A stretch of 64,000 nucleotides of DNA. Source: a virus. Under the pieces are notes generated by a model. It did not search any database. It saw only the letters and a list, made by a program, of their open reading frames with translations, and had not been told where the DNA came from. Below, piece by piece: positions 7,181 through 36,728 of this stretch; within the stretch, counting starts at the first letter, position 1, and the number at the start of each line of letters is the position of its first letter. Made by a program: the position numbers and the translations under genes. The DNA lies in IMG/VR virus record IMGVR_UViG_3300031521_000011, positions 96,001 to 160,000 of that record; one strand, written 5' to 3'.

Positions 7181-10100
7181 ATGGTGGTGAGAGTTGTGGA
7201 ACAAGGTAATTCGATGGATGGTGCACTGCTCAGTGTACAGCAACAACAGCTCGATGAGTTAAGGAGCATTCGTGCACAGACGGCATCCGGTCCATTTGTC
7301 GCCGGCAGAGAGCAGACATCCTTCTCCCAATACTCGATGAATACCGGGGCGGCGCAGCAACAAGCGTCCGCCCAGGGTTTATTTATGCCGACGCCAAACG
7401 TTGGAGGAATCCCACTCTCTCCATTTACTCAAAATATGGGTAACTCCGCCGCAACATACATGCAGCAGGCAAATTTAAAACAGGCATTATTTAGCTATGA
7501 CCGCAATAGGGTATCCCGAGAGAACAGGGACTTAACCGGTATGCAGGCTGGTCAGAATATTTTTCAGGCTGGCTTGGCCGGGGCTGGTGCACTGGGCGGT
7601 CTCGGAGGAGATGCCCTTGGTACATCTATATTTGGTGGACTGGGATTAGCTGGCGGATTTGCCGGCGGCGCTATCGGCGGTGCTATTGGCGGTGCCGTAT
7701 TCGCATCTGCAGCGCAAGAGATGGGAGTGCAGTCCGGATATAGCAATTACTTGTTTCAGAATTCACAGCGCTTTATTAACCCATACGAATCTACAAATCG
7801 CAGATATGGTATGGGTTTCAATAACGATGAAAGGTCTGGCGCATCGTCATACTTGAGGTCATTATCGACAAGTAGAAATATTAGCGATACCGACATGAGT
7901 GGTATATTGAGCGGTGCAGTTGATCAAAACCTCCTGAAGGATGTTACAAATCTCAAGACATTCAAGGAAAAAATGGCTAAATTAACCGACAGCGTTAAGA
8001 CATCCGCCCTCTTGCTGAATGAAACATATCAGAACGTCACAAAGATGATGGGCGAACTTGAACGCGCGGGTGTATCAACCGGAAATTTCGATTACATGAT
8101 GGGAAAAATGAAGACACTGGGATCATTCACCGGCATGAATACGATGGAGGCCACAAATTCAACTTTGACCGTATCTGGCTCAAAAACCGGTACGGCATGG
8201 AATTCCGAGAGGCAGATCGAGAACTCCGCTTTGGATCTCAGGGTTATGCAGGTACTCAAAAATGGCGCTGATAAGAATCCAAATGGAACTCTTGGATTTA
8301 TAACGAATTTATATAATAATACCGAAGGCAGCACGGACGCAGAAAAACTGAGCAATCTTACAGTAAGGGCAAACCGAACCATGCAGGAAGTCATGGGAAA
8401 TCAAACCTTCCAATCAGCATATTCCGGATTGTTCAATTATAATGATGCCAGTGGTAAGTTTGAGCTTGACCAGAGTGCATATGATAGGTTTACTAGCGGG
8501 AATATGTCATATGCCGACATAATGGGTGAATCATCAAAGAAGATGACTGCATGGAGCGCGGATGGAAAGCATACCGGATTCCAGTGGCAGCAAATGGCTA
8601 ACGATACCTTTATGGATCTTACGGATGTACAGAAAGGAAAACTTCAAGGAACATTCTTTTCCACTGTTGGCCGTGATACGATGTTTGGTGAGACTGACCA
8701 ATCTACAATCATGGCAGGCCTTGGCATAGGCTCAACTGACGCTGATAGGAAATTGTTCACTCAACTTTACGGTACCCTTGGATCTAAAGGCAATATTTAT
8801 CAGAATGAGATGTCTCAAGAGGGATTCAATCAGACTATGCAGGCGAAAATAGATTCTGAATCTGAAGGTCTGTGGCAGTCAATCAAAAAAGTCTTTAACA
8901 CCATGTCTGATAAAATCGGAGATGCGGTTGAGCCTATGCGCAAAAGCATGGAAGAGGCTGGTGTTACATGGAAAGATATTTGGAACGGAACGCATCCAAC
9001 AAATCGCGTACAGTTTCAGGATCCATTAAATTTCACTGACTCAGGCGCTACCGGATCAGCAGAATCGATATCCAAGTCGATGAATGCATATATCTCAGAC
9101 TATCAAAAGTATGGTGGTACGACTAAGGATCTCGAATTGCTTGACCCTAAAGGACAACTCAGTGTGACTGGCGGAGGCGTTGATCAATATGGATCAAAGA
9201 TGACCGGTATCATGAAAATAGAAGATATCGACTATCTTAATAACGTCATGAACTCGAAAGCTAAAAGTACCTTCGAGCAGCATGGTGCCCTTATCCCAGC
9301 GCTTACTGTTGATGATATTGCCGCCTCAATGAATTTAACTTTCAATGAAGGGGACGACAAGCAGTCAATAACTCAAGAGGCGATGCTCCGTAAATATTCA
9401 AAAATGATACAACAGCTTCAGGGCGGAAAGGCCAGTGGCCTCAATGACTATGAGATCGTTGCAGGTAATCAGGCCCTTTCCACTATGTCGGATGCGCTTA
9501 AATGGATGGGCGTTGATGTGGCGCCTGTTAATAATCTAGGATACTCTAAAGAAATGCTTGCAACACTCCAAAATCAATATGGTGGAAAGACCACAGATTA
9601 CTATGGAGCCCTTAAAACACAAGCGGAGAAGTCTGCTAAATTAGATCTTACGAATAATGGATCAGATGCTACACGAAATGCAATAAATAGCCTAACGGCC
9701 GATGTAGCTGCGACAGGAGTAGCTCAAAGTAAAGCTGAATCTGATATTATGGCGGCCATGTCTGGATATTCAGATGCTGATTCGATTGCTGCCAGGGATC
9801 AGATTTCTAAACTTATGGACTCTATTCGCTCCGGAGATTTGGCTCCTGAAGATGCCAGAGCTCAATTTAATGCATTAAAATCATCAGGAAAAGCCAGTAG
9901 TCTTTATAGTGAAGTGTCAGACAAGTTCAACTTAGTAGCAGACAAAGCTATGGCAAAATCTTCAGGTGAAGCAATTCTCAAGACACGTAGTGAGGATAGT
10001 AGCAGGATTCTCGGGGCAATTAAAGCAGGAGGAAGTGTTGCCAGCCTCATTGGTGGAGATGCTGCATATAATAAATTACTGAGTGGTGCTACAGTTTCAA

Positions 10101-25775: not shown

Positions 25776-28724
<2,949 letters not shown>

Positions 28725-28761
28725 TATATCGAATATCAAAGAATTAAATGGGGAGGAAATA

Positions 28762-29343
28762 ATGAAATCTGAATGGGAACAAGCAACAGATTGGGAAAGG
28801 GAATGGCACGGAAACTGTGTCAACTCATACCAAGAGGAGACTAAACAGATTGAATACGCAAAACGAATGGGTCTGGTTATCGAAGGTAGAGATGGAAGAT
28901 ACCCTATTATCGATTTCCATGACAAATCTGTTATCGACGTTGGAGGTGGACCATATTCATTGCTACTCAAGGGAATCAATCTGCATGGAACCGTGCTTGA
29001 TCCTTGTAAATACCCTCAATGGGTATACCAAAGATATGCGGCGGCCGGAATCCATATCATCGAGATGAAGGCTGAGGACTACTGCAATCCACGCTATGAC
29101 ATTGGGCTTCTGTATAACTGTCTGCAGCATACAGAAAATCCAAAGAAGATCATTGAAAATATGAAAAAGATGTGCGACTTGATTTATATCCATGAATGGC
29201 TAGATACACCAATATCGGATGGCCACATACAGACAATCCGGGAAGCGGATCTTAATGAGTGGTTAGAAGGAATTGGAATGATTGGATATGAACGCTGGAG
29301 CGACACTGTTGTAACGCCGTACTACTACGGATTGTTTATATAG
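28762..29343 (+). CDS. Class I SAM-dependent methyltransferase
   Basis: VIDVGGGP motif I and YNCLQH motif; GGAGG RBS before ATG 28762. Confidence 0.8.
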   Translation: MKSEWEQATDWEREWHGNCVNSYQEETKQIEYAKRMGLVIEGRDGRYPIIDFHDKSVIDVGGGPYSLLLKGINLHGTVLDPCKYPQWVYQRYAAAGIHIIEMKAEDYCNPRYDIGLLYNCLQHTENPKKIIENMKKMCDLIYIHEWLDTPISDGHIQTIREADLNEWLEGIGMIGYERWSDTVVTPYYYGLFI

Positions 29344-29361
29344 AAAGAAGGAGTAAGCAGA

Positions 29362-30477
29362 ATGGAGAAACCAACAATTCATGTTATAGGGATGCCGCAT
29401 ATTCAAACCTCAAAAGCATATTGCAGAGATGCTTATGGAATGAAGATACTTCATTTTTGCCAAATGATGCATAAAGAAGGATACAAAATCATGCTTTATG
29501 CCAGTGAGGATAATGAGACGCCTGCCGAATTATTCACATGCATCACTAAAGCTCAGCAAGCCAAGCTGGGTTTTGAAGGCCCTGAAGACTATCTGAACAT
29601 ACAGTTCGATGTCACCAAGCCTATCTGGCAGATATTTCAGTCCAGAGTGACTTATTTTCTGAATAAAAATGTAAGTCCCGGAGACATCATTGGTACATTC
29701 TCTGGGCTTTGCGACAAATCCATTGCTGACGCCTTTCCGCAATGCTATTTTGTAGAACTCGGGATCGGGTATTCTGGCGTATTTTCTGGCTTCCGCATCT
29801 TTGAATCTTATGCCTGGATGCATACGATTTACGGAGCATCCACCGGAAACGCATCTGCAACAGACGGCAAATTCTACGATACTGTGATCCCGAATTATTT
29901 TAATCCCGATGATTTTCCATTTAAAAGCGAAAAGGAAGATTATTTCCTATTCGTCGGGAGAATGATCTATCGGAAAGGAATTGTCATCATCAACGACATG
30001 GCTAAGCGTATGCCAAATACTAAATTTATCTTTGCAGGACAAGGCGCCGTTCAGTATAAAAACAAAATAGGTTGTAGCGATGGAACTGTTCTTGAGGGGG
30101 ATAACCTGGAGTATATCGGAACTATCAATATAGAGCAGCGTGGTAAGCTGATGAGCGGAGCAAAAGCTCTCATTGTGCCTACTATTTACATCGGACCTTT
30201 TGAGGGCGTTCATGCAGAGGCTATGTTTTGCGGAACGCCCGTAATAACCACGAACTTTGGTTGCTTTACAGAGACGAATATCGATGGTGTTACTGGATAC
30301 CGATGCTCTACGATCAAACAATTCGTTGAAGCTGCAAGCAAGGTATCATCCCTCGATCCTATGAAGATACGGGCTCATGCCCTGTCAAAATTTTCTATGG
30401 ATAGTGTTGCTCCTCAATATACGAAATATTTTGAGCAAATTCAGGGTTTAGCTAACGGCGGATTCTATGAAATGTAG
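29362..30477 (+). CDS. GT4 (GT-B) glycosyltransferase
   Basis: VIPNYFNPDDF, LFVGRMIYRKG, GPFEGVHAEAMFCGTPVIT, DGVTGY. Confidence 0.85.
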   Translation: MEKPTIHVIGMPHIQTSKAYCRDAYGMKILHFCQMMHKEGYKIMLYASEDNETPAELFTCITKAQQAKLGFEGPEDYLNIQFDVTKPIWQIFQSRVTYFLNKNVSPGDIIGTFSGLCDKSIADAFPQCYFVELGIGYSGVFSGFRIFESYAWMHTIYGASTGNASATDGKFYDTVIPNYFNPDDFPFKSEKEDYFLFVGRMIYRKGIVIINDMAKRMPNTKFIFAGQGAVQYKNKIGCSDGTVLEGDNLEYIGTINIEQRGKLMSGAKALIVPTIYIGPFEGVHAEAMFCGTPVITTNFGCFTETNIDGVTGYRCSTIKQFVEAASKVSSLDPMKIRAHALSKFSMDSVAPQYTKYFEQIQGLANGGFYEM

Positions 30478-30533
30478 TTGAAAACTGGCGCACTGAAAGA
30501 TTATTAGGTATACTTAGATTCGGGGTGATAATT

Positions 30534-32108
30534 ATGGCTTTCGTAACGGCTGGCGTTAAAATCTACGCCACCAACTATAATAGAGTAAAGGGCAGAATAG
30601 CAGCTGAGTTAGCTCGGCGTGGATTGACATCCACATTGAGAAGCAATGTTACCGCTGGAATAAAGATGCTGGCAACTGATATGTCTAGCCTTCAAACCAA
30701 TATTAATAAGATTGCCACGCACTATTCTTCGCTTATGGCGGCTGGTACTAAAATCAGAGCTTCTGACTATAATAACCTGGATGACCAAGTGCAGGCGCAT
30801 GTCAACTTTGATATTTATTCGCTGGTCGCCACGGATTGCGCCTCAAGCTGTACCGGTGGATGCTATACCGCCTGCTCAGCAAGCTGTAAAAATACGTGTA
30901 CCGGTAACTGCTCAACGTCCTGTAGCGGAGCGTGTGGTGTTGTCTGCACCGCTTCATGTGGTGGCTGTGGCGCAGGCTGTTGGAGTACCTGCGCGGCGGG
31001 ATGCGCTGGCTGTAGCGGCACCTGCAATGGATGCACTGGACAATGCTCATCAACATGCAAAACGGCATGCGCCGGCTGTGGAACGAGTTGCGTGACGGCA
31101 TGCAGCACCGGATGCAATGGATGCACCGGGCACTGTAATGGATGCACTGGTCAATGTTCCGCCAAATGCGCTACTGTATGCGCAAGCTGCTCTGGACAGT
31201 GTAGCAGCGCATGCGCCGGTGGATGTCATGGATGCTCAGGACAGTGCGATACAGACTGCACAGGGGCCTGTACCGGGCGTTGTCTTACCGTATGCGGTGT
31301 ATGTGCCTCTAGCTGCTCAAGCGCTTGTAAGGGCTGCAGTGGGTGTTCTACGTCATGCGGATCTAACTGCTCGACGAACTGTGGTACAGATTGTGCTGGT
31401 GGATGCAATACCAACTGCACTGGCTCATGTACTTCGACCTGTTCTATAGCGTGCTATAGTGTTTGCGGGGGCTGCTCTAACGGATGCGCCAGCTGTACTG
31501 GAGGATGTCAGGGTGCCTGTAAGGGATGCGATACGACGTGTAGCACAGGATGCAGTGGGGCCTGTAAGGGGTCATGCAACAACGGCTGCACTGGTTGTGA
31601 TACAGTATGTACAGGCGGCTGTAAGGGATGCAGTGCATGTGGAAATGGAAGCTGCTCTCAATCATGCGGAATCGCGTGTTCGTCCTGCAAGGGTGCATGC
31701 ACTGGTTGCTCAACCGGATGTTCTACAAGTTGTAATGCCGCATGCACTACTGGTTGCGGAAGTACCTGTGATAATAACTGCGCCAGTGATTGTGAAGGTG
31801 GATGCACCGGTACCTGTAATGGCTGTTCTACCACATGCACCGGCGGATGTTCAACCGCCTGTACGGCTTGTGGTGGAAATTGCGATAATAACTGCGCCAG
31901 TAATTGCGAGGGTGGATGCACCGGTGGATGCACGGCATGCAATACTACATGCAGCAGTGGGTGTAAGGCAACCTGTAAAGATGCATGCGGCGGATGTGCG
32001 GCCGCATGCCTGGGTGGCTGCACTGGATGCGCCGCATTATGTACAGGTGGCTGCACTGGATGCAGCTCCAACTGTATGGGTTCATGCAAAACGGGTGCTA
32101 CTACCTGA
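30534..32108 (+). CDS. Giant Cys-rich CXXX-repeat protein (putative radical SAM substrate; fibre-like N-terminus)
   Basis: ~100-aa Cys-free N-terminus with three AGxKxxA repeats, then about 111 Cys (manual count) in CXXX/CXX periodicity; adjacent to a radical SAM/SPASM gene. Confidence 0.85.
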   Translation: MAFVTAGVKIYATNYNRVKGRIAAELARRGLTSTLRSNVTAGIKMLATDMSSLQTNINKIATHYSSLMAAGTKIRASDYNNLDDQVQAHVNFDIYSLVATDCASSCTGGCYTACSASCKNTCTGNCSTSCSGACGVVCTASCGGCGAGCWSTCAAGCAGCSGTCNGCTGQCSSTCKTACAGCGTSCVTACSTGCNGCTGHCNGCTGQCSAKCATVCASCSGQCSSACAGGCHGCSGQCDTDCTGACTGRCLTVCGVCASSCSSACKGCSGCSTSCGSNCSTNCGTDCAGGCNTNCTGSCTSTCSIACYSVCGGCSNGCASCTGGCQGACKGCDTTCSTGCSGACKGSCNNGCTGCDTVCTGGCKGCSACGNGSCSQSCGIACSSCKGACTGCSTGCSTSCNAACTTGCGSTCDNNCASDCEGGCTGTCNGCSTTCTGGCSTACTACGGNCDNNCASNCEGGCTGGCTACNTTCSSGCKATCKDACGGCAAACLGGCTGCAALCTGGCTGCSSNCMGSCKTGATT

Positions 32109-32131
32109 TCTGAATGGTCCGAACACACTAC

Positions 32132-32169
32132 AATATCTGCCCGAATCAGTTCGAGCAGATATTTTTTTC
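32132..32169 (+). terminator. Rho-independent terminator after Cys-rich gene
   Basis: AATATCTGCCCGAA-TCAG-TTCGAGCAGATATT followed by T run. Confidence 0.75.
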
Positions 32170-32198
32170 TTGTCAACCTATCTGTCCTGAGGTATAAT
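32170..32198 (+). promoter_or_regulatory. Sigma-A-type promoter for the radical SAM gene
   Basis: TTGTCA-17 bp-TATAAT; GAGGT RBS before ATG 32230. Confidence 0.75.
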
Positions 32199-32229
32199 AC
32201 GACCAGAATCAAAAAATAGCGAGGTAACT

Positions 32230-34572
32230 ATGTTAAGGAAGCAAGGATATCGCTCACAGTATCAGGACCTTTTCGTTCGCATGTATCCAGAACTGTGCGA
32301 AACTGGACATCAAATACTTGCAACTAAAACAATTACATTCGTGCTTACAGAGGCTTGTCCTCTGAGGTGTTCGTACTGTGTTACAGCGGGAACAATGCTT
32401 CTTGATGGAAATTTTCAGGAAGTGCCTATTGAGAAAGTTAAAATTGGAGATACAATCATGGGATTCGATGAAAATAATCCAATGAATAGAAAGCAGAGAA
32501 AAGTATTTCCATCTAAAGTTACAGCAATATTTGAAAGGGATGCTGAAGTTATTCGCATTTCCTTTGATAATGGGGAAAGCTTAGAAATCACAGAAGAGCA
32601 TCCGCTACTTACAGATAGAGGCTGGAAACTTGCTGGTAAAGTATCCTGTGCAAATCTCGTAAAAAGCTTAACACCCAATATAAAAAATACCATACCAGTA
32701 GACATTGATAGTCTTTCATACAAGACTGGGTATGTAGTTGCCTCTTGGAAGGGCGATGGTAGTGTCAAAAGATATACACGGACAGTTGGAAATACAGAAG
32801 GTCTTGATATGTTCAAAATTCGCCTTGCGGTGAAAGATGATGAAATAATAGACCGCACGGAAAGATTTAGCAGAAATATAGGTATTGAATTTTATAGAAA
32901 ACTATATCTAGTCTCTAAAAAATATAATATGAAAAAAGAAGCTTTGTTTGCTAATACTCGAAAAGTCTATAATCAGCTAAATAATTTGTTCACAGAAAAT
33001 ATTGGTAGAAATGAATCTGTGGAGTATGCAAGTGGATTTTTAGCTGGAATTTATGATACAGAGGGTAGTATAAGCCCTAAGGGAATTATACGCATCTCAC
33101 AACTAGAGGGTGAAGTACTGAACGAGATACAACGTTGCCTGTCTATTCTGAAAATACCATTCGTAAACGAGGTATTTTCAGGTAGGGGTGCACACAATAT
33201 TCGTATTATCGAACCCTCTTGTGAGCATACTCGAACACTCAATGCGCTACGCTTTATTAGGCAAGTACGTCCTTCTGTTGCGCGAAAAGGTGTAAGCGTT
33301 TTCTATAATAGATCCTTACTTCTTGAGACTCGCATAGTCAAAATAGAAAAGGTAGGTAATAGAAAAGTATACAATGTTGAAACCGACTCCCATACCTACA
33401 TTGCAAACTATATGGCAGTTCATAATTGCTATCAGTGCAATAAAGATCACTCAGCCATCATGAGTAAGGAAGTGGCTGATAAAGCCATCGATACAATCCT
33501 ATCCAATGAGGCTATGCATGGATATATGGACTCAAATCAATCCCCATCCGTCATCCTTGACTTTATTGGCGGTGAGCCTCTGCTGGAGGCAGAGCTCATG
33601 GATTATATCGTCCAACAGTTCAGGAAGAAAGCCTACCTTCTCAATCATCCATGGGCCAAGTACCATATGATAAGCATCTCATCCAACGGAATCCCGATTA
33701 TATCGAATCCGAAGGCTGTAGAGTTTATTAAGAAATACAAAAATAAATTGAGTCTCACCATCACAATCGATGGCAACAAGGAGCTCCATGATGCCTGCCG
33801 GGTGTATCCTTCAGGGGCTGGCTCCTATGACGACGTTCGCAAGGCCATAGACATTGCTCGGCAGTATGTCACAATGACAAACACCAAGGTGACTCTGGCA
33901 CCTGAAAACGTACAGTACCTGACTGAGTCAGTCACCCACCTGTTTGATCTTGGGTTCACAGATGTGCACGCAAATTGCGTATTTGAAAACGTTTGGAAGA
34001 TTGAAAATGCCCAGGAGCTATATCGACAGATGATAAAGCTTGCAGACATTATGATTGATGGAAAACTCTATGAAAAGTATGAGTGTTCCTTGTTCGATGA
34101 CTTTATTGGTCACCCCATGCTCGATAGCGATACACAAAATTGGTGCGGAGGCTCAGGTCAAATGTTGGCTATTGGCACAGATGGCCGATTATTCCCATGT
34201 ATTCGCTTTATGAAGTATAGCTATAGTAATCAAATTCGTGAAGAATACGAGGTTGGCGACGTTGATCGTGGCATCGACAGGAAAGAAGATAATAAGTATC
34301 TGCAGATTCTTGGAACAATCACGCGCCAGGCTCAATCTACAGATGAGTGCTTGACCTGCCCGGTAGCCAGCGGATGCTCCTGGTGCACAGGTTACAACTA
34401 CGATTACTTCGGCACGCCGAATCACCGGGCTACATTCATCTGCTGGCCGCATAAGGCGAGGGTGTTGGCCAACCATTACTACTGGTCAAAGCTGGCTGAA
34501 GCTGGTATCATAGATACCGTTCCTGTTCTTCATTTAACTGATGAAGATATTAAGATAGTCAGGGGCGAATGA
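32230..34572 (+). CDS. Radical SAM/SPASM peptide maturase (CXXX-repeat-target type), intein-containing
   Basis: Spliced CPLRCSYCYQ motif, FIGGEPLLE, TIDG, SPASM Cys (WCGG...FPCIRF...CLTCPVASGCSWC...IC); 430-aa extein. Confidence 0.9.
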   Translation: MLRKQGYRSQYQDLFVRMYPELCETGHQILATKTITFVLTEACPLRCSYCVTAGTMLLDGNFQEVPIEKVKIGDTIMGFDENNPMNRKQRKVFPSKVTAIFERDAEVIRISFDNGESLEITEEHPLLTDRGWKLAGKVSCANLVKSLTPNIKNTIPVDIDSLSYKTGYVVASWKGDGSVKRYTRTVGNTEGLDMFKIRLAVKDDEIIDRTERFSRNIGIEFYRKLYLVSKKYNMKKEALFANTRKVYNQLNNLFTENIGRNESVEYASGFLAGIYDTEGSISPKGIIRISQLEGEVLNEIQRCLSILKIPFVNEVFSGRGAHNIRIIEPSCEHTRTLNALRFIRQVRPSVARKGVSVFYNRSLLLETRIVKIEKVGNRKVYNVETDSHTYIANYMAVHNCYQCNKDHSAIMSKEVADKAIDTILSNEAMHGYMDSNQSPSVILDFIGGEPLLEAELMDYIVQQFRKKAYLLNHPWAKYHMISISSNGIPIISNPKAVEFIKKYKNKLSLTITIDGNKELHDACRVYPSGAGSYDDVRKAIDIARQYVTMTNTKVTLAPENVQYLTESVTHLFDLGFTDVHANCVFENVWKIENAQELYRQMIKLADIMIDGKLYEKYECSLFDDFIGHPMLDSDTQNWCGGSGQMLAIGTDGRLFPCIRFMKYSYSNQIREEYEVGDVDRGIDRKEDNKYLQILGTITRQAQSTDECLTCPVASGCSWCTGYNYDYFGTPNHRATFICWPHKARVLANHYYWSKLAEAGIIDTVPVLHLTDEDIKIVRGE
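32377..33426 (+). mobile_element. Intein with LAGLIDADG homing endonuclease (350 aa)
   Basis: Begins C-V-T-A-G-T, block B ITEEHPLLT, LAGLIDADG-like ASWKGDGSV and FLAGIYDTEGSI, ends VYNVET...YIANYMAVHN followed by +1 Cys. Confidence 0.93.
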
Positions 34573-35396
34573 GAATGAAATATAAACCGTTTTTTGGCGT
34601 TACAGAAAAGATTGATGACGATATTGCGGATATAAAGAAGGAATCTGCAAAGATTCGTGAACCCGAAATTGGATGTTCAGTAGGCTGCTTTGGCTGTGGA
34701 ACTACATGTATTGGAGCATGCTTTGCTGCATGCGTCGGTGCATGCATAGGTAACTGCGCTGGTAGCTCCATGGGGAATATGAAGCCCCCTGTCGTATGTA
34801 ATCAGCCAAAATGCATGAGCTGCAGCAGCGAAGAGGTATTAATGTCATTTCCTGTTACGGAGGATTTGAGCTTATATCTTGAAAAACTCCTTACCGAGAG
34901 GATATCGCTGCAAGAGATTATTATATCGGTAGGGAATGACCCAACCATCGAGAATGACGAAAAATTTCAAGAACTTATGCAGCAATATAAAGATGCATTC
35001 GTGGCGTGGGACTACTGCTACATAATGCTGGCAAAGGAATATGTTCCTGCAGAATATATGGGCGGTATTTCATTTTCATTCAACGAAAAAACATTCGTAT
35101 ATAAAGGAGAGGTAAAAAACATGAGCAATGCAAAAGTACTCACAGAAGCCATCGAGTCAGAGGAAAAGGATACCCTTCAGAACAGCTGGTACGACAGAGA
35201 GGCACTCCATGAGCTGATCAAGGAAGGCTCCACATCCATCGAAGTAATGAGGGAATTCAAGGAAGCCAACCGTATCTATCAAAAGACATGGAACGATCTG
35301 CTGAAGAAGTATTTCCCCAGCGTGGATACATCAACCAACGGCACGGCATCGTGGACTTGCGACTTCGAGGCCAACACGGTCACGGTCACCATGTAG
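34569..35396 (+). CDS. Short CXXX-repeat peptide fused to two CXXX-system accessory-like domains
   Basis: N-terminal CSVGCFGCGTTCIGACFAACVGACIGNC; two related ~90-aa domains ending ISFSFNEKTFVY and WTCDFEANTVTV; internal in-frame RBS+ATG at 34842 and 35121. Confidence 0.7.
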   Translation: MRMKYKPFFGVTEKIDDDIADIKKESAKIREPEIGCSVGCFGCGTTCIGACFAACVGACIGNCAGSSMGNMKPPVVCNQPKCMSCSSEEVLMSFPVTEDLSLYLEKLLTERISLQEIIISVGNDPTIENDEKFQELMQQYKDAFVAWDYCYIMLAKEYVPAEYMGGISFSFNEKTFVYKGEVKNMSNAKVLTEAIESEEKDTLQNSWYDREALHELIKEGSTSIEVMREFKEANRIYQKTWNDLLKKYFPSVDTSTNGTASWTCDFEANTVTVTM

Positions 35397-35409: not shown

Positions 35410-35841
35410 ATGAAAATATCTCTAAAGAATCTCCAGAGCCTATATCTAGCTCATCAGAATCTTCTCAGTTTCGAGTTGAGTGGCCGGTTTGGATATATGG
35501 CTGCCATAAATCTACAGGTTCTGGAACCGGCCTGGGAGGAATATGTCAAGCGCAGACAAATCCTCGAAATGTCCTACGCTCATAAAGAAGATGGGCAAAT
35601 TATGCGCGACTTAACCGGCGGTATCATCTTTGATGATGAAGAAAAATACCAATCAGAACTGGATAAACTCCAGCGCACAATCTCTAATGTCCCCCTATAT
35701 GTATTCGAGAGAGAAGATGTTGTAGAACATGGAAGAATACTGGGGGCCATCATGTACAACCTTCTACCCGTCATGCCGGATCTGGCGTGGCCAATTGTGC
35801 CCGTAATGGCAGAAAGCGAGGATGCATCATGTCAGCAGTAA
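35410..35841 (+). CDS. Hypothetical phage protein (DUF1617-like)
   Basis: 143 aa with GGAGG RBS; pattern resembles small proteins often found between fibre and lysis genes. Confidence 0.55.
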   Translation: MKISLKNLQSLYLAHQNLLSFELSGRFGYMAAINLQVLEPAWEEYVKRRQILEMSYAHKEDGQIMRDLTGGIIFDDEEKYQSELDKLQRTISNVPLYVFEREDVVEHGRILGAIMYNLLPVMPDLAWPIVPVMAESEDASCQQ

Positions 35842-36728
35842 TTGGGAGAAAGCCAAAGGTAGCTCTGACCAGGGGGCATGACCCCAGCACGCCCGGGAAG
35901 CGCTCGTTCGATGGAAAGCTCAGGGAGTGGGCCTTCAACGATGACATGGCCGCGCGCCTTAATAAGCATCTGCTGTTCAATGGGATCGACGTCCTATTGA
36001 CGATCCCTACCGGAGGAGCGGATGCGCTGCCGGACATCAACACCCACAATGGATATCTTAACCGCAAGGCGCGTATCGCCAAGATCAACGCCTGGAAGCC
36101 GGATCTGGAGATCGAGTTCCACGCCAATGCCTGTGGTACCAACTGGAATAGCGGCCGTGGGCAAATCCTCTATATCGCAGCGTCAAAGAGGGGAACGGAC
36201 TCCGAAAAATTCATCAATGTGCTTCGCAAATACATGCGCTCTGTGGCCGGCACTGGCTCTATCACGCCGGATCGTGGATTCGGCTATAAGAACTTTGATA
36301 TCGTGAATGGCGTCAAAGCTCCATGCTGCCTGATCGAGCATGCTTTCATGACGAATCACGAAGACGTTGCATTGCTATTGAGTGATGTGCAGCGCGATAA
36401 ATGGGCCGAGGCAGAGGCCCGGGCCGTCTGCGAGTGGTTCGCTATTCCGTTTAAAAACTACAAAAATGTTGTTACGCCGCCAAAGCCGCCAAAGCCACCG
36501 GTTCCGAAAATGCCCACCCTCAAGCGCGGCATGGTGAATAATGATGATGTTCGTAAGCTGCAGAATGCCATCAATAAGTTCATCGCAGACAAAAAGAATT
36601 GGCTTGATGTGGATGGAGACTTCGGAGAACTGACAGAACAGGCCCTTATAGCTGTCCAGAAGGCATTACTGCCCTCTTCCCCCTTGGGAGTTGCCGATCA
36701 AGCAACCTGGGACAAGCTACTGGCATAA
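35829..36728 (+). CDS. Endolysin: N-acetylmuramoyl-L-alanine amidase (Amidase_3) plus PG-binding domain
   Basis: RGH, LREWAFN, FHANA, LIEHAFMTN catalytic motifs; PPKPPKP linker; LKRG...VDGDFGELT...VQ PG_binding_1. Confidence 0.9.
   Translation: MSAVIGRKPKVALTRGHDPSTPGKRSFDGKLREWAFNDDMAARLNKHLLFNGIDVLLTIPTGGADALPDINTHNGYLNRKARIAKINAWKPDLEIEFHANACGTNWNSGRGQILYIAASKRGTDSEKFINVLRKYMRSVAGTGSITPDRGFGYKNFDIVNGVKAPCCLIEHAFMTNHEDVALLLSDVQRDKWAEAEARAVCEWFAIPFKNYKNVVTPPKPPKPPVPKMPTLKRGMVNNDDVRKLQNAINKFIADKKNWLDVDGDFGELTEQALIAVQKALLPSSPLGVADQATWDKLLA

Follow-up and report, generated by a model that had tools for sequence, protein, structure and literature searches.

A phage CXXX-repeat protein with a conserved three-motif N-terminal module and a cysteine ladder presumed to be the substrate of a radical SAM maturase

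The 64,000-nucleotide stretch of DNA analysed here (the window) comprises bases 96001-160000 of the IMG/VR virus record IMGVR_UViG_3300031521_000011 and carries, on the + strand, a gene for a 524-aa protein whose cysteines follow each other in CXXX and CXX units. Profile and homologue searches place this CXXX protein, as a large phage-type member, in the catalogued family of CXXX-repeat targets of radical S-adenosylmethionine (SAM) enzymes (PF27846, TIGR04114/04117). It consists of a Cys-free N-terminal module (N-module) with three related repeats, followed by a ladder of 111 Cys, and directly downstream lies a maturase gene of the matching radical SAM/SPASM family, whose product very probably cross-links the ladder. 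New here is the definition of a conserved three-motif N-module that is linked exclusively to the Cys ladder. The explanation we favour, with a probability of about 0.55, is that the protein has two parts, the N-module being a constant handle and the ladder a variable region that would be stapled by the maturase into a tail-associated rod.

The gene description given by the initial annotation, an open reading frame (ORF) with a Cys-free N-terminus and a CXXX/CXX ladder of small residues, was borne out in every element. The ATG at 30534 is the likely start, because GGGGTG lies 6 nt upstream and the family profile of the N-module aligns from exactly that Met; a GTG at 30525 is an alternative start of the same ORF. 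Counted from the ATG, all 111 Cys fall within residues 102-518. The distance from one Cys to the next is four residues in 84 cases (CXXX), three in 25 (CXX) and five in one (CXXXX), with a mean spacing of 3.78, and the commonest succession of gaps is 4-4-4-3. The ladder is composed of 27% Cys, 19% Gly, 14% Ser, 13% Thr and 10% Ala (Gly, Ser, Thr and Ala together 57%), along with Asn, and contains no Pro, three aromatic residues, two His, nine Asp and two Glu. The Cys core had no match in the PDB and no similarity to metallothioneins or to any solved Cys-rich protein. Two overlapping ORFs, at 31459-32190 (+) and 31658-32212 (-), were read as by-products of the repetitive composition, since homologues exist only for the + frame from 30534.

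The relatives of the protein connect it to the catalogued target family. PF27846 ('tSAM_targ_Cxxx_rpt') is carried by 55 of the 62 length-matched homologues and by the nearest Atlas clusters, which are mostly viral. The protein itself scored 19.2 bits against TIGR04117 (cut-off 50), a paralogue model for one genus, and matched phrog_6085 (unknown function) with an E-value of 6.7e-15 and the N-module profile with 3.6e-19. The enzyme matched TIGR04115 ('radical SAM peptide maturase, CXXX-repeat target family') at 403.6 bits (395.4 bits in the genome search), above the cut-off of 350. Its score against NF047865, the model of the characterised enzyme PapB, was 173.5 bits (E 6.5e-51; cut-off 340). 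The comparison covered 50 IMG/VR loci and 20 loci of bacterial genomes. Of the 49 IMG/VR loci that include a CXXX start, 46 encode a maturase with 39-47% identity to that of the window no more than ~2.5 kb away from the CXXX gene, and so do 17 of the 20 bacterial genome loci; the loci that lack an adjoining maturase are mostly contig ends. Two jumbo phages encode the maturase in the same genome, 60-85 kb from the CXXX gene (~60 kb in L006).

A 350-aa intein (aa 50-399; window 32377-33426), which contains a LAGLIDADG domain, splits the maturase of the window inside the CxxxCxxC motif. It sits immediately before the third Cys of that motif: Cys1 of the intein comes after C-P-L-R-C-S-Y, and the third ligand proper of the cluster is the +1 Cys. 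The insertion is absent from all 48 of 48 related maturases encoded beside CXXX genes. In the 289-kb jumbo phage L006 (158689-160287, minus strand), the TIGR04115 match is split within one 777-aa frame by ~142 aa inserted near the cluster motif, possibly another intein, of smaller size, in the same place.

The three N-terminal repeats that had been proposed for the protein, each of ~26 aa in the present analysis, proved statistically real. Ungapped self-alignment gave a score of 45 for repeats 1 and 3 (reached by 0 of 2000 shuffles), 40 for repeats 1 and 2 (p 0.0025) and 33 for repeats 2 and 3 (p ~0.02), compared to a shuffle mean of 22 +/- 4, and the pairs share 6-8 identical residues out of 26. 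A multiple alignment of full-length homologues revealed that each repeat corresponds to a family motif: M1 (h-x-x-x-D-h-x-x-L-K-x-x-h-x-x-E-h-x-R-R-G), M2 (G-x-K-h-x-A-[DE]-x-h-x-x-L...I) and M3 (...Y-N-x-L-x-x-x-h-x-x-L). About eight residues after M3 the ladder opens with an entry motif, C-[RA]-x-x-C-[TS]-G-[LGM]-C. At the family level the M1, M2 and M3 blocks align with one another in the same register, yet weakly (hhalign E 0.003-0.012), and the alignments therefore point to an ancient triplication that this protein keeps unusually visible. By the same comparisons, the triple repeat is a diverged copy of a conserved module that many CXXX proteins encoded by phages and prophages of anaerobic Clostridia have. 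An AlphaFold2 (AF2) model of residues 1-140, built from 12 sequences, had a predicted local distance difference test (pLDDT) score of 53 and was too poor for a fold search; its helices (residues 12-28, 47-71 and 78-90) coincide with the helical halves of the repeats. As modelled, the module is mainly helical, with three diverged copies of a ~30-aa unit in which an extended G-x-K-h-x-A stretch is followed by an amphipathic helix.

The GxKIxAxxxN repeat had been likened to virion-attachment segments of phage fibres, a resemblance that the searches did not recover. The 101-aa N-terminus alone found no match by tblastn against GenBank phages, in a word-indexed search, by phmmer against 1.84 billion protein representatives, or in Pfam and NCBIfam; PHROGs gave only matches with E >= 0.045, the best PDB hit had an E-value of ~1, and the Atlas hits were small viral clusters only. 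The profile check suggested for residues 1-100 gave the resemblance no support: searched against 9,046 ORFs drawn from this phage and from related loci, the module profile matched CXXX proteins only, and none of the other tail proteins. Kinship between members shows in the multiple alignment and in profile searches only, and BLASTP of the N-terminus against that of the L001 protein gave no match.

Most members of the family have the module at the N-terminus; P0008, P0022 and P0024 have it internally and P0039 has it at the C-terminus, and the Cys block always adjoins it. It was found in siphovirus-like 58-kb phages, in the 168-kb myovirus and in prophages of many Clostridia, and 290-kb jumbo phages retain M1 alone, at residues 11-26 of CXXX proteins of 800-890 aa. 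In the P0055 family the N-module is the most conserved part (89-98% identical), and the distal parts are swapped. Several Clostridia prophages (L058, 7025-8008; L061, 7001-8102; L065, 7001-7998; L066, L067 and L068) have a two-gene system, in which gene 1 encodes ~150 aa with the N-module and a conserved 11-Cys block ending in ...STM(S)A, and is followed by a ribosome-binding site (RBS) and a leaderless ORF with 41-53 Cys. Bacterial CXXX substrates that carry a twin-arginine translocation (Tat) signal do not have the N-module. A CXXX protein with a Tat signal is encoded in L002 (MT837480.1, 2222-6270), which was deposited as 'Bacteriophage sp.' and looks bacterial; the locus further encodes a maturase, another SPASM protein, a genuine TIGR04116 protein and, by ORF reading, TatA- and TatC-like genes.

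The position of the gene suggests a link of the protein to the tail. On the + strand of the window the order is baseplate wedge, tail proteins, collagen/collar fibre, methyltransferase-like protein, GT4, CXXX gene, radical SAM/SPASM gene, 275-aa ORF, 143-aa ORF and endolysin, so that the CXXX gene lies inside the tail-fibre module and is co-oriented with it, as a virion-appendage gene would be. L054, L056 and L061 have the same succession of baseplate wedge, tail protein or fibre, CXXX, accessory, maturase, holin and endolysin genes. The CXXX gene of L011 stands last in a siphovirus-type tail-tip module, and that of L059 comes after a tail-fibre gene. The end of the tail-fibre module is always the place of the CXXX gene in the phages and prophages that carry the N-module. 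The fibre-like reading of the initial annotation also agrees with the relatives, which join the same Cys ladder to exchangeable C-terminal domains and to galactose-binding/discoidin, Ig-like and Hint domains; the N-terminus of P0007 is one that we take to be fibre-like. All genome-derived loci come from anaerobic Bacillota, among them Emergencia, Eubacterium, Lachnospiraceae, Oscillospiraceae and Neglectibacter. Two isolates with the cassette in a prophage are Eubacterium pyruvativorans i6 (L058) and Neglectibacter timonensis SN17 (L071).

The length of the ladder varies between relatives. A tblastn search of IMG/VR with the maturase and one baseplate-region protein as queries found no closer relatives of this phage, and Cys counts were instead compared in more distant families. 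They range from 28 to 145 across the loci of relatives and from 55 to 64 within one phage family, and the number of Cys units is thus evolutionarily plastic; the 111 Cys of the present protein are a large number but not the largest. Repeat number may, as the initial annotation supposed, tune fibre length. Members of the 58-kb phage family have a constant N-module of 108 aa and a Cys block of 205-247 aa; their C-terminal domain measures 190 or 136 aa or is missing. About 17 of the 43 CXXX genes in this family end at a glycine/G-rich run directly behind 'AFGAVV(S/Q)G(G)', and the others run into the 136- or 190-aa domain. These early stops, near 9050-9100 of each locus (L013, L019, L025, L027, L030-L033, L035, L037, L040, L042, L043, L045, L047, L049 and L052), could possibly reflect slippage, phase variation or an assembly error.

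Within the ladder of the window itself, an internal duplication had been noted and taken as a sign of repeat expansion. The duplication is real, with 38-aa units starting at 31770 and 31884, but the expansion is not recent: the copies share 23 of 38 residues and 67-74% nucleotide identity, and have the appearance of an old duplication. The DNA of the remaining ladder is only 60-80% self-similar, which indicates that the ladder has diverged as a whole and is not a hypervariable recent repeat array.

The 275-aa ORF that follows the maturase encodes an accessory protein with two tandem domains (34842-35120 and 35121-35393). Both halves align with a ~100-120-aa ORF found upstream of the maturase in 17 other loci, and the accessory protein of L056 is a tandem version too. 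Against TIGR04116 the accessory protein scored 17.1-18.5 bits (cut-off 50), compared to 104.6 bits for the bacterial L002 protein, and by these scores its family appears to be a very distant relative of TIGR04116. The AF2 model (pLDDT 88.7) has the topology strand-helix-helix-strand-strand, and its comparison with the PDB gave no specific match, the best hits being generic helical hairpins (Foldseek E > 0.6; VIA Z <= 6.8). The start of the accessory ORF (34569-34841) encodes a charged stretch and then a short hydrophobic run with ~10 Cys at CXXX/CXX spacing, accompanied by Val, Phe and Ile. The idea that M1 is a fused TIGR04116-like helix was ruled out, as hhalign gave it a probability of 0.1% and the M1 profile matched accessory proteins only at E >= 0.09.

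The source record is 168,244 bp long and complete according to CheckV, with a GC content of 46% and 15 tRNA genes. A major head protein, a tail sheath and a baseplate wedge in the genome mark the phage as a myovirus type. The tail sheath is ~25% identical to that of Bacillus phage G, and the phage has no close cultured relative. Features of the locus are collected in Table 1. Among the genes between 20.4 and 37.9 kb of the window there is no peptidase, exporter or ABC transporter, and the 524-aa CXXX protein has no signal peptide. Between the CXXX and maturase genes lies a hairpin with a stem of 8 bp and a loop of 14 nt, followed by a T7 run; the terminator scan missed it because of the 14-nt loop. 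From this arrangement, the CXXX substrate and the maturase may be transcribed separately. The collagen-like fibre (982 aa, 25776-28724) has G-x-T repeats and is followed by the methyltransferase-like and GT4 genes, and could possibly be glycosylated. If so, two different fibre-modifying systems would adjoin each other in this genome.

Table 1. Features of the CXXX locus and its surroundings, with positions in the window
Feature	Position	Strand	Evidence
Collagen-like fibre with tail-collar domain, methyltransferase-like protein and GT4 glycosyltransferase	25776..30477	+	Pfam Collagen, Collar, Glycos_transf_1; phrog_3603, phrog_3408
Gene for the 524-aa CXXX-repeat protein	30534..32108 (including stop)	+	ORF list; RBS; phrog_6085; 62 homologues; N-module profile
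Cys-free N-terminal module, aa 1-101	30534..30836	+	Alignments; profile search; AF2 model
Repeat 1 (VTAGVKIYATNYN...ELARR), family motif M1, ending RRG	30543..30620	+	Self-alignment statistics; M1 in 21 further members
Repeat 2 (VTAGIKMLATDMS...), family motif M2	30648..30725	+	Self-alignment; family alignments
Repeat 3 (MAAGTKIRASDYN...), family motif M3, directly before the Cys entry motif	30735..30812	+	Self-alignment; family alignments
Cys ladder, 111 Cys in 417 aa, presumed maturase substrate region	30837..32087	+	Residue counts; weak TIGR04117; PF27846 in relatives
Tandem duplication of a 38-aa (114-nt) block, DNNCASxCEGGCTG...	31770..31997	+	TRF period 114, 1.8 copies, 74% matches; repeat search
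Hairpin and T-run (ATATCTGC...GCAGATAT TTTTTTT), then promoter-like TTGTCA-17-TATAAT	32132..32198	+	Sequence read; promoter scan 11/12
Radical SAM/SPASM maturase, CXXX-repeat target family	32230..34572	+	TIGR04115; Pfam Radical_SAM, Intein_splicing, LAGLIDADG_3
275-aa accessory protein, hydrophobic Cys-rich stretch and two tandem domains	34569..35396	+	19-sequence alignment A4; weak TIGR04116; AF2
Amidase_3 / PG_binding_1 endolysin	35787..36728	+	Downstream context

In the explanation that we favour, the ladder would be modified at a late stage of infection inside an anaerobic Clostridia-type host, whose cytoplasm is reducing; hosts that are strict anaerobes fit the oxygen-sensitive radical SAM step. 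The spliced maturase, together with the tandem accessory protein, would install many Cys-derived cross-links along the ladder, most likely thioethers if the analogy with PapB holds. Covalent stapling would turn the ladder into a redox-independent rod that serves on the tail or together with it, and the N-module, as a constant handle, would dock the ladder to a conserved partner. We lean slightly, and with low confidence, towards the maturase/accessory complex rather than the baseplate as this partner, because these are the only components common to all module-bearing phage lineages. The module would then act like a leader that is not cleaved, and its tie to the Cys block whatever its position, as well as its retention across phages with unrelated tails, speaks for such a role. 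A more specific version, in which the N-module is an uncleaved cis docking domain that would hold the maturase-accessory complex processively over more than 100 Cys sites while the stapled virion rod is built, we put forward tentatively and think rather unlikely. In that version, leader-guided chemistry in the manner of ribosomally synthesised and post-translationally modified peptides (RiPPs) would be a cytoplasmic substitute for disulfides in phages of strict anaerobes.

Several points weigh against the stapled-rod explanation or against parts of it. Literature searches found no experimental or descriptive paper on this protein type, in phages or elsewhere. The region between tail-fibre and lysis genes can hold non-structural accessory genes, and the protein of the window has no distal receptor-binding domain. 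The N-module shows no similarity to known fibre-attachment domains, leader families or solved structures. The maturase exteins, ~430 aa, are covered almost fully by the 359-position TIGR04115 profile, and the enzyme therefore seems to have no room for a RiPP recognition element (RRE). The accessory model is not recognisably PqqD-like by Foldseek or VIA-align, so that an RRE label for this protein is not supported either. The leaderless Cys-rich ORFs and the module-free bacterial substrates with Tat signals show that a ladder can exist without an N-module in cis. Finally, the acceptor that PapB requires is a carboxylate on the C-terminal side of the Cys (PMC12373016), and the ladder is nearly without Asp/Glu acceptors of this type (9 Asp and 2 Glu in 417 aa); since acidic acceptors are almost absent, the acceptor of the cross-links would have to differ from that of PapB.

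Some of the same observations would suit an N-module that is structural, an anchor or oligomerisation (registration) domain that trimerises the ladder or fixes it to the tail, with the maturase reading the Cys repeats directly. In most members the very N-terminus is occupied by the module, as it is by the anchor in fibres, three helices are predicted in it, and it is the most conserved part of the P0055 family (89-98%), where the distal parts swap; the leaderless ORFs and module-free bacterial substrates imply in addition that the maturase finds the ladder unaided. Retention of the module across siphovirus-like, myovirus and jumbo tails, which are unrelated, makes a common virion docking site unlikely, however, and the module adjoins the Cys block even where it is internal or C-terminal. 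It also has no similarity to known fibre N-termini, and the monomer model that predicts its helices is of low confidence. We regard a purely structural module as possible, if on the unlikely side, and take it more seriously than any other alternative.

The protein could also act away from the virion. As a late-made, moron-type accessory released at lysis, for example a protease-resistant or metal-binding cross-linked polymer, its targets would be the environment, competitors or the surface of the host. Relatives fused to fibre-type and carbohydrate-binding domains, and in P0007 to the fibre-like N-terminus, are hard to reconcile with such cargo, as is the fixed position directly after the last fibre gene in unrelated phages. 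The gene does lie between fibre and lysis genes, where non-structural cargo can sit, it is flanked by a terminator-like hairpin and a separate promoter-like site, and it encodes no receptor-binding domain; its bacterial relatives are Tat-exported and so act outside the cell, although the phage locus has no signal peptide, peptidase or exporter. We consider this reading improbable. The least probable in our estimate is that the ladder is chiefly a metal- or iron-sulfur-binding scaffold of metallothionein type, in which the radical SAM enzyme has a minor or different role. A core with 27% Cys at CxxC/CxxxC spacing could bind metal, and the Tat signals of the bacterial relatives are typical of exported proteins that bear cofactors. 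The near-universal link to a radical SAM/SPASM enzyme of the peptide-maturase type argues against it, and so do the presence of only two His in the core and the lack of similarity to metallothioneins or solved Cys-rich proteins.

If the ladder is cross-linked and the tail carries it, RiPP enzymology would serve phages of gut anaerobes in the completion of a structural protein of the virion, a post-translational step so far unknown in phage assembly. A single substrate would then have around a hundred modification sites, far beyond the characterised peptide substrates of radical SAM enzymes. The N-module provides a sequence signature with which phage-type members can be found. The family is frequent in prophages of gut Clostridia, and could therefore matter in the gut for the stability of phages and for the recognition of their hosts.

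Among known systems, the locus is most directly comparable to the CXXX-repeat system of NCBIfam and Pfam, with which it shares a maturase above the TIGR04115 cut-off, the CXXX/CXX ladder, homologues with PF27846 and a small helical accessory protein beside the maturase. The catalogued targets are short peptides or Tat-exported bacterial proteins, whereas the present one is a 524-aa phage protein with an N-module of ~100 aa that is in no library. The accessory protein here is tandem and very divergent (17-18 bits compared to a cut-off of 50), and the maturase has an intein. The closest characterised enzyme model is PapB (NF047865), although the maturase scored far below its cut-off (173 compared to 340). 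PapB is a radical SAM/SPASM enzyme that forms several thioether rings in tandem C-X3-D motifs with i/i+4 spacing (PMC12373016), and this spacing is the same as that of the Cys ladder. Its substrate PapA is a short leader-plus-core peptide, in contrast to the large, structural-type protein studied here. The repeat element VTAGVK resembles the PapA leader fragment ..VIAGVK.. (PMC12373016), a likeness of six residues only that is not conserved in the family motifs.

A classical RiPP precursor comes with a leader peptidase or exporter and yields a small released product, whereas this locus has neither and its product has 524 aa. RiPP precursors with NHLP and Nif11 leaders have a folded domain of ~70-100 aa ahead of a Cys-rich core, for which there is a dedicated modifying enzyme, and the arrangement of N-module and ladder is alike. 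The N-module has no sequence similarity to these leaders and no GG cleavage site with a peptidase-transporter nearby, and in some relatives it is internal or C-terminal. From known phage fibres with repetitive shafts the protein differs in that neither its N-module nor its core has sequence or fold similarity to them (Pfam, PHROGs tail category, PDB and GenBank phages), in that its shaft consists of a Cys ladder, for which cross-linking by an enzyme is presumably required, and in that its location in the virion is a prediction. With such fibres it nevertheless has in common the location in a fibre module, a constant N-terminus, a variable low-complexity shaft and, in relatives, the swapping of distal domains.

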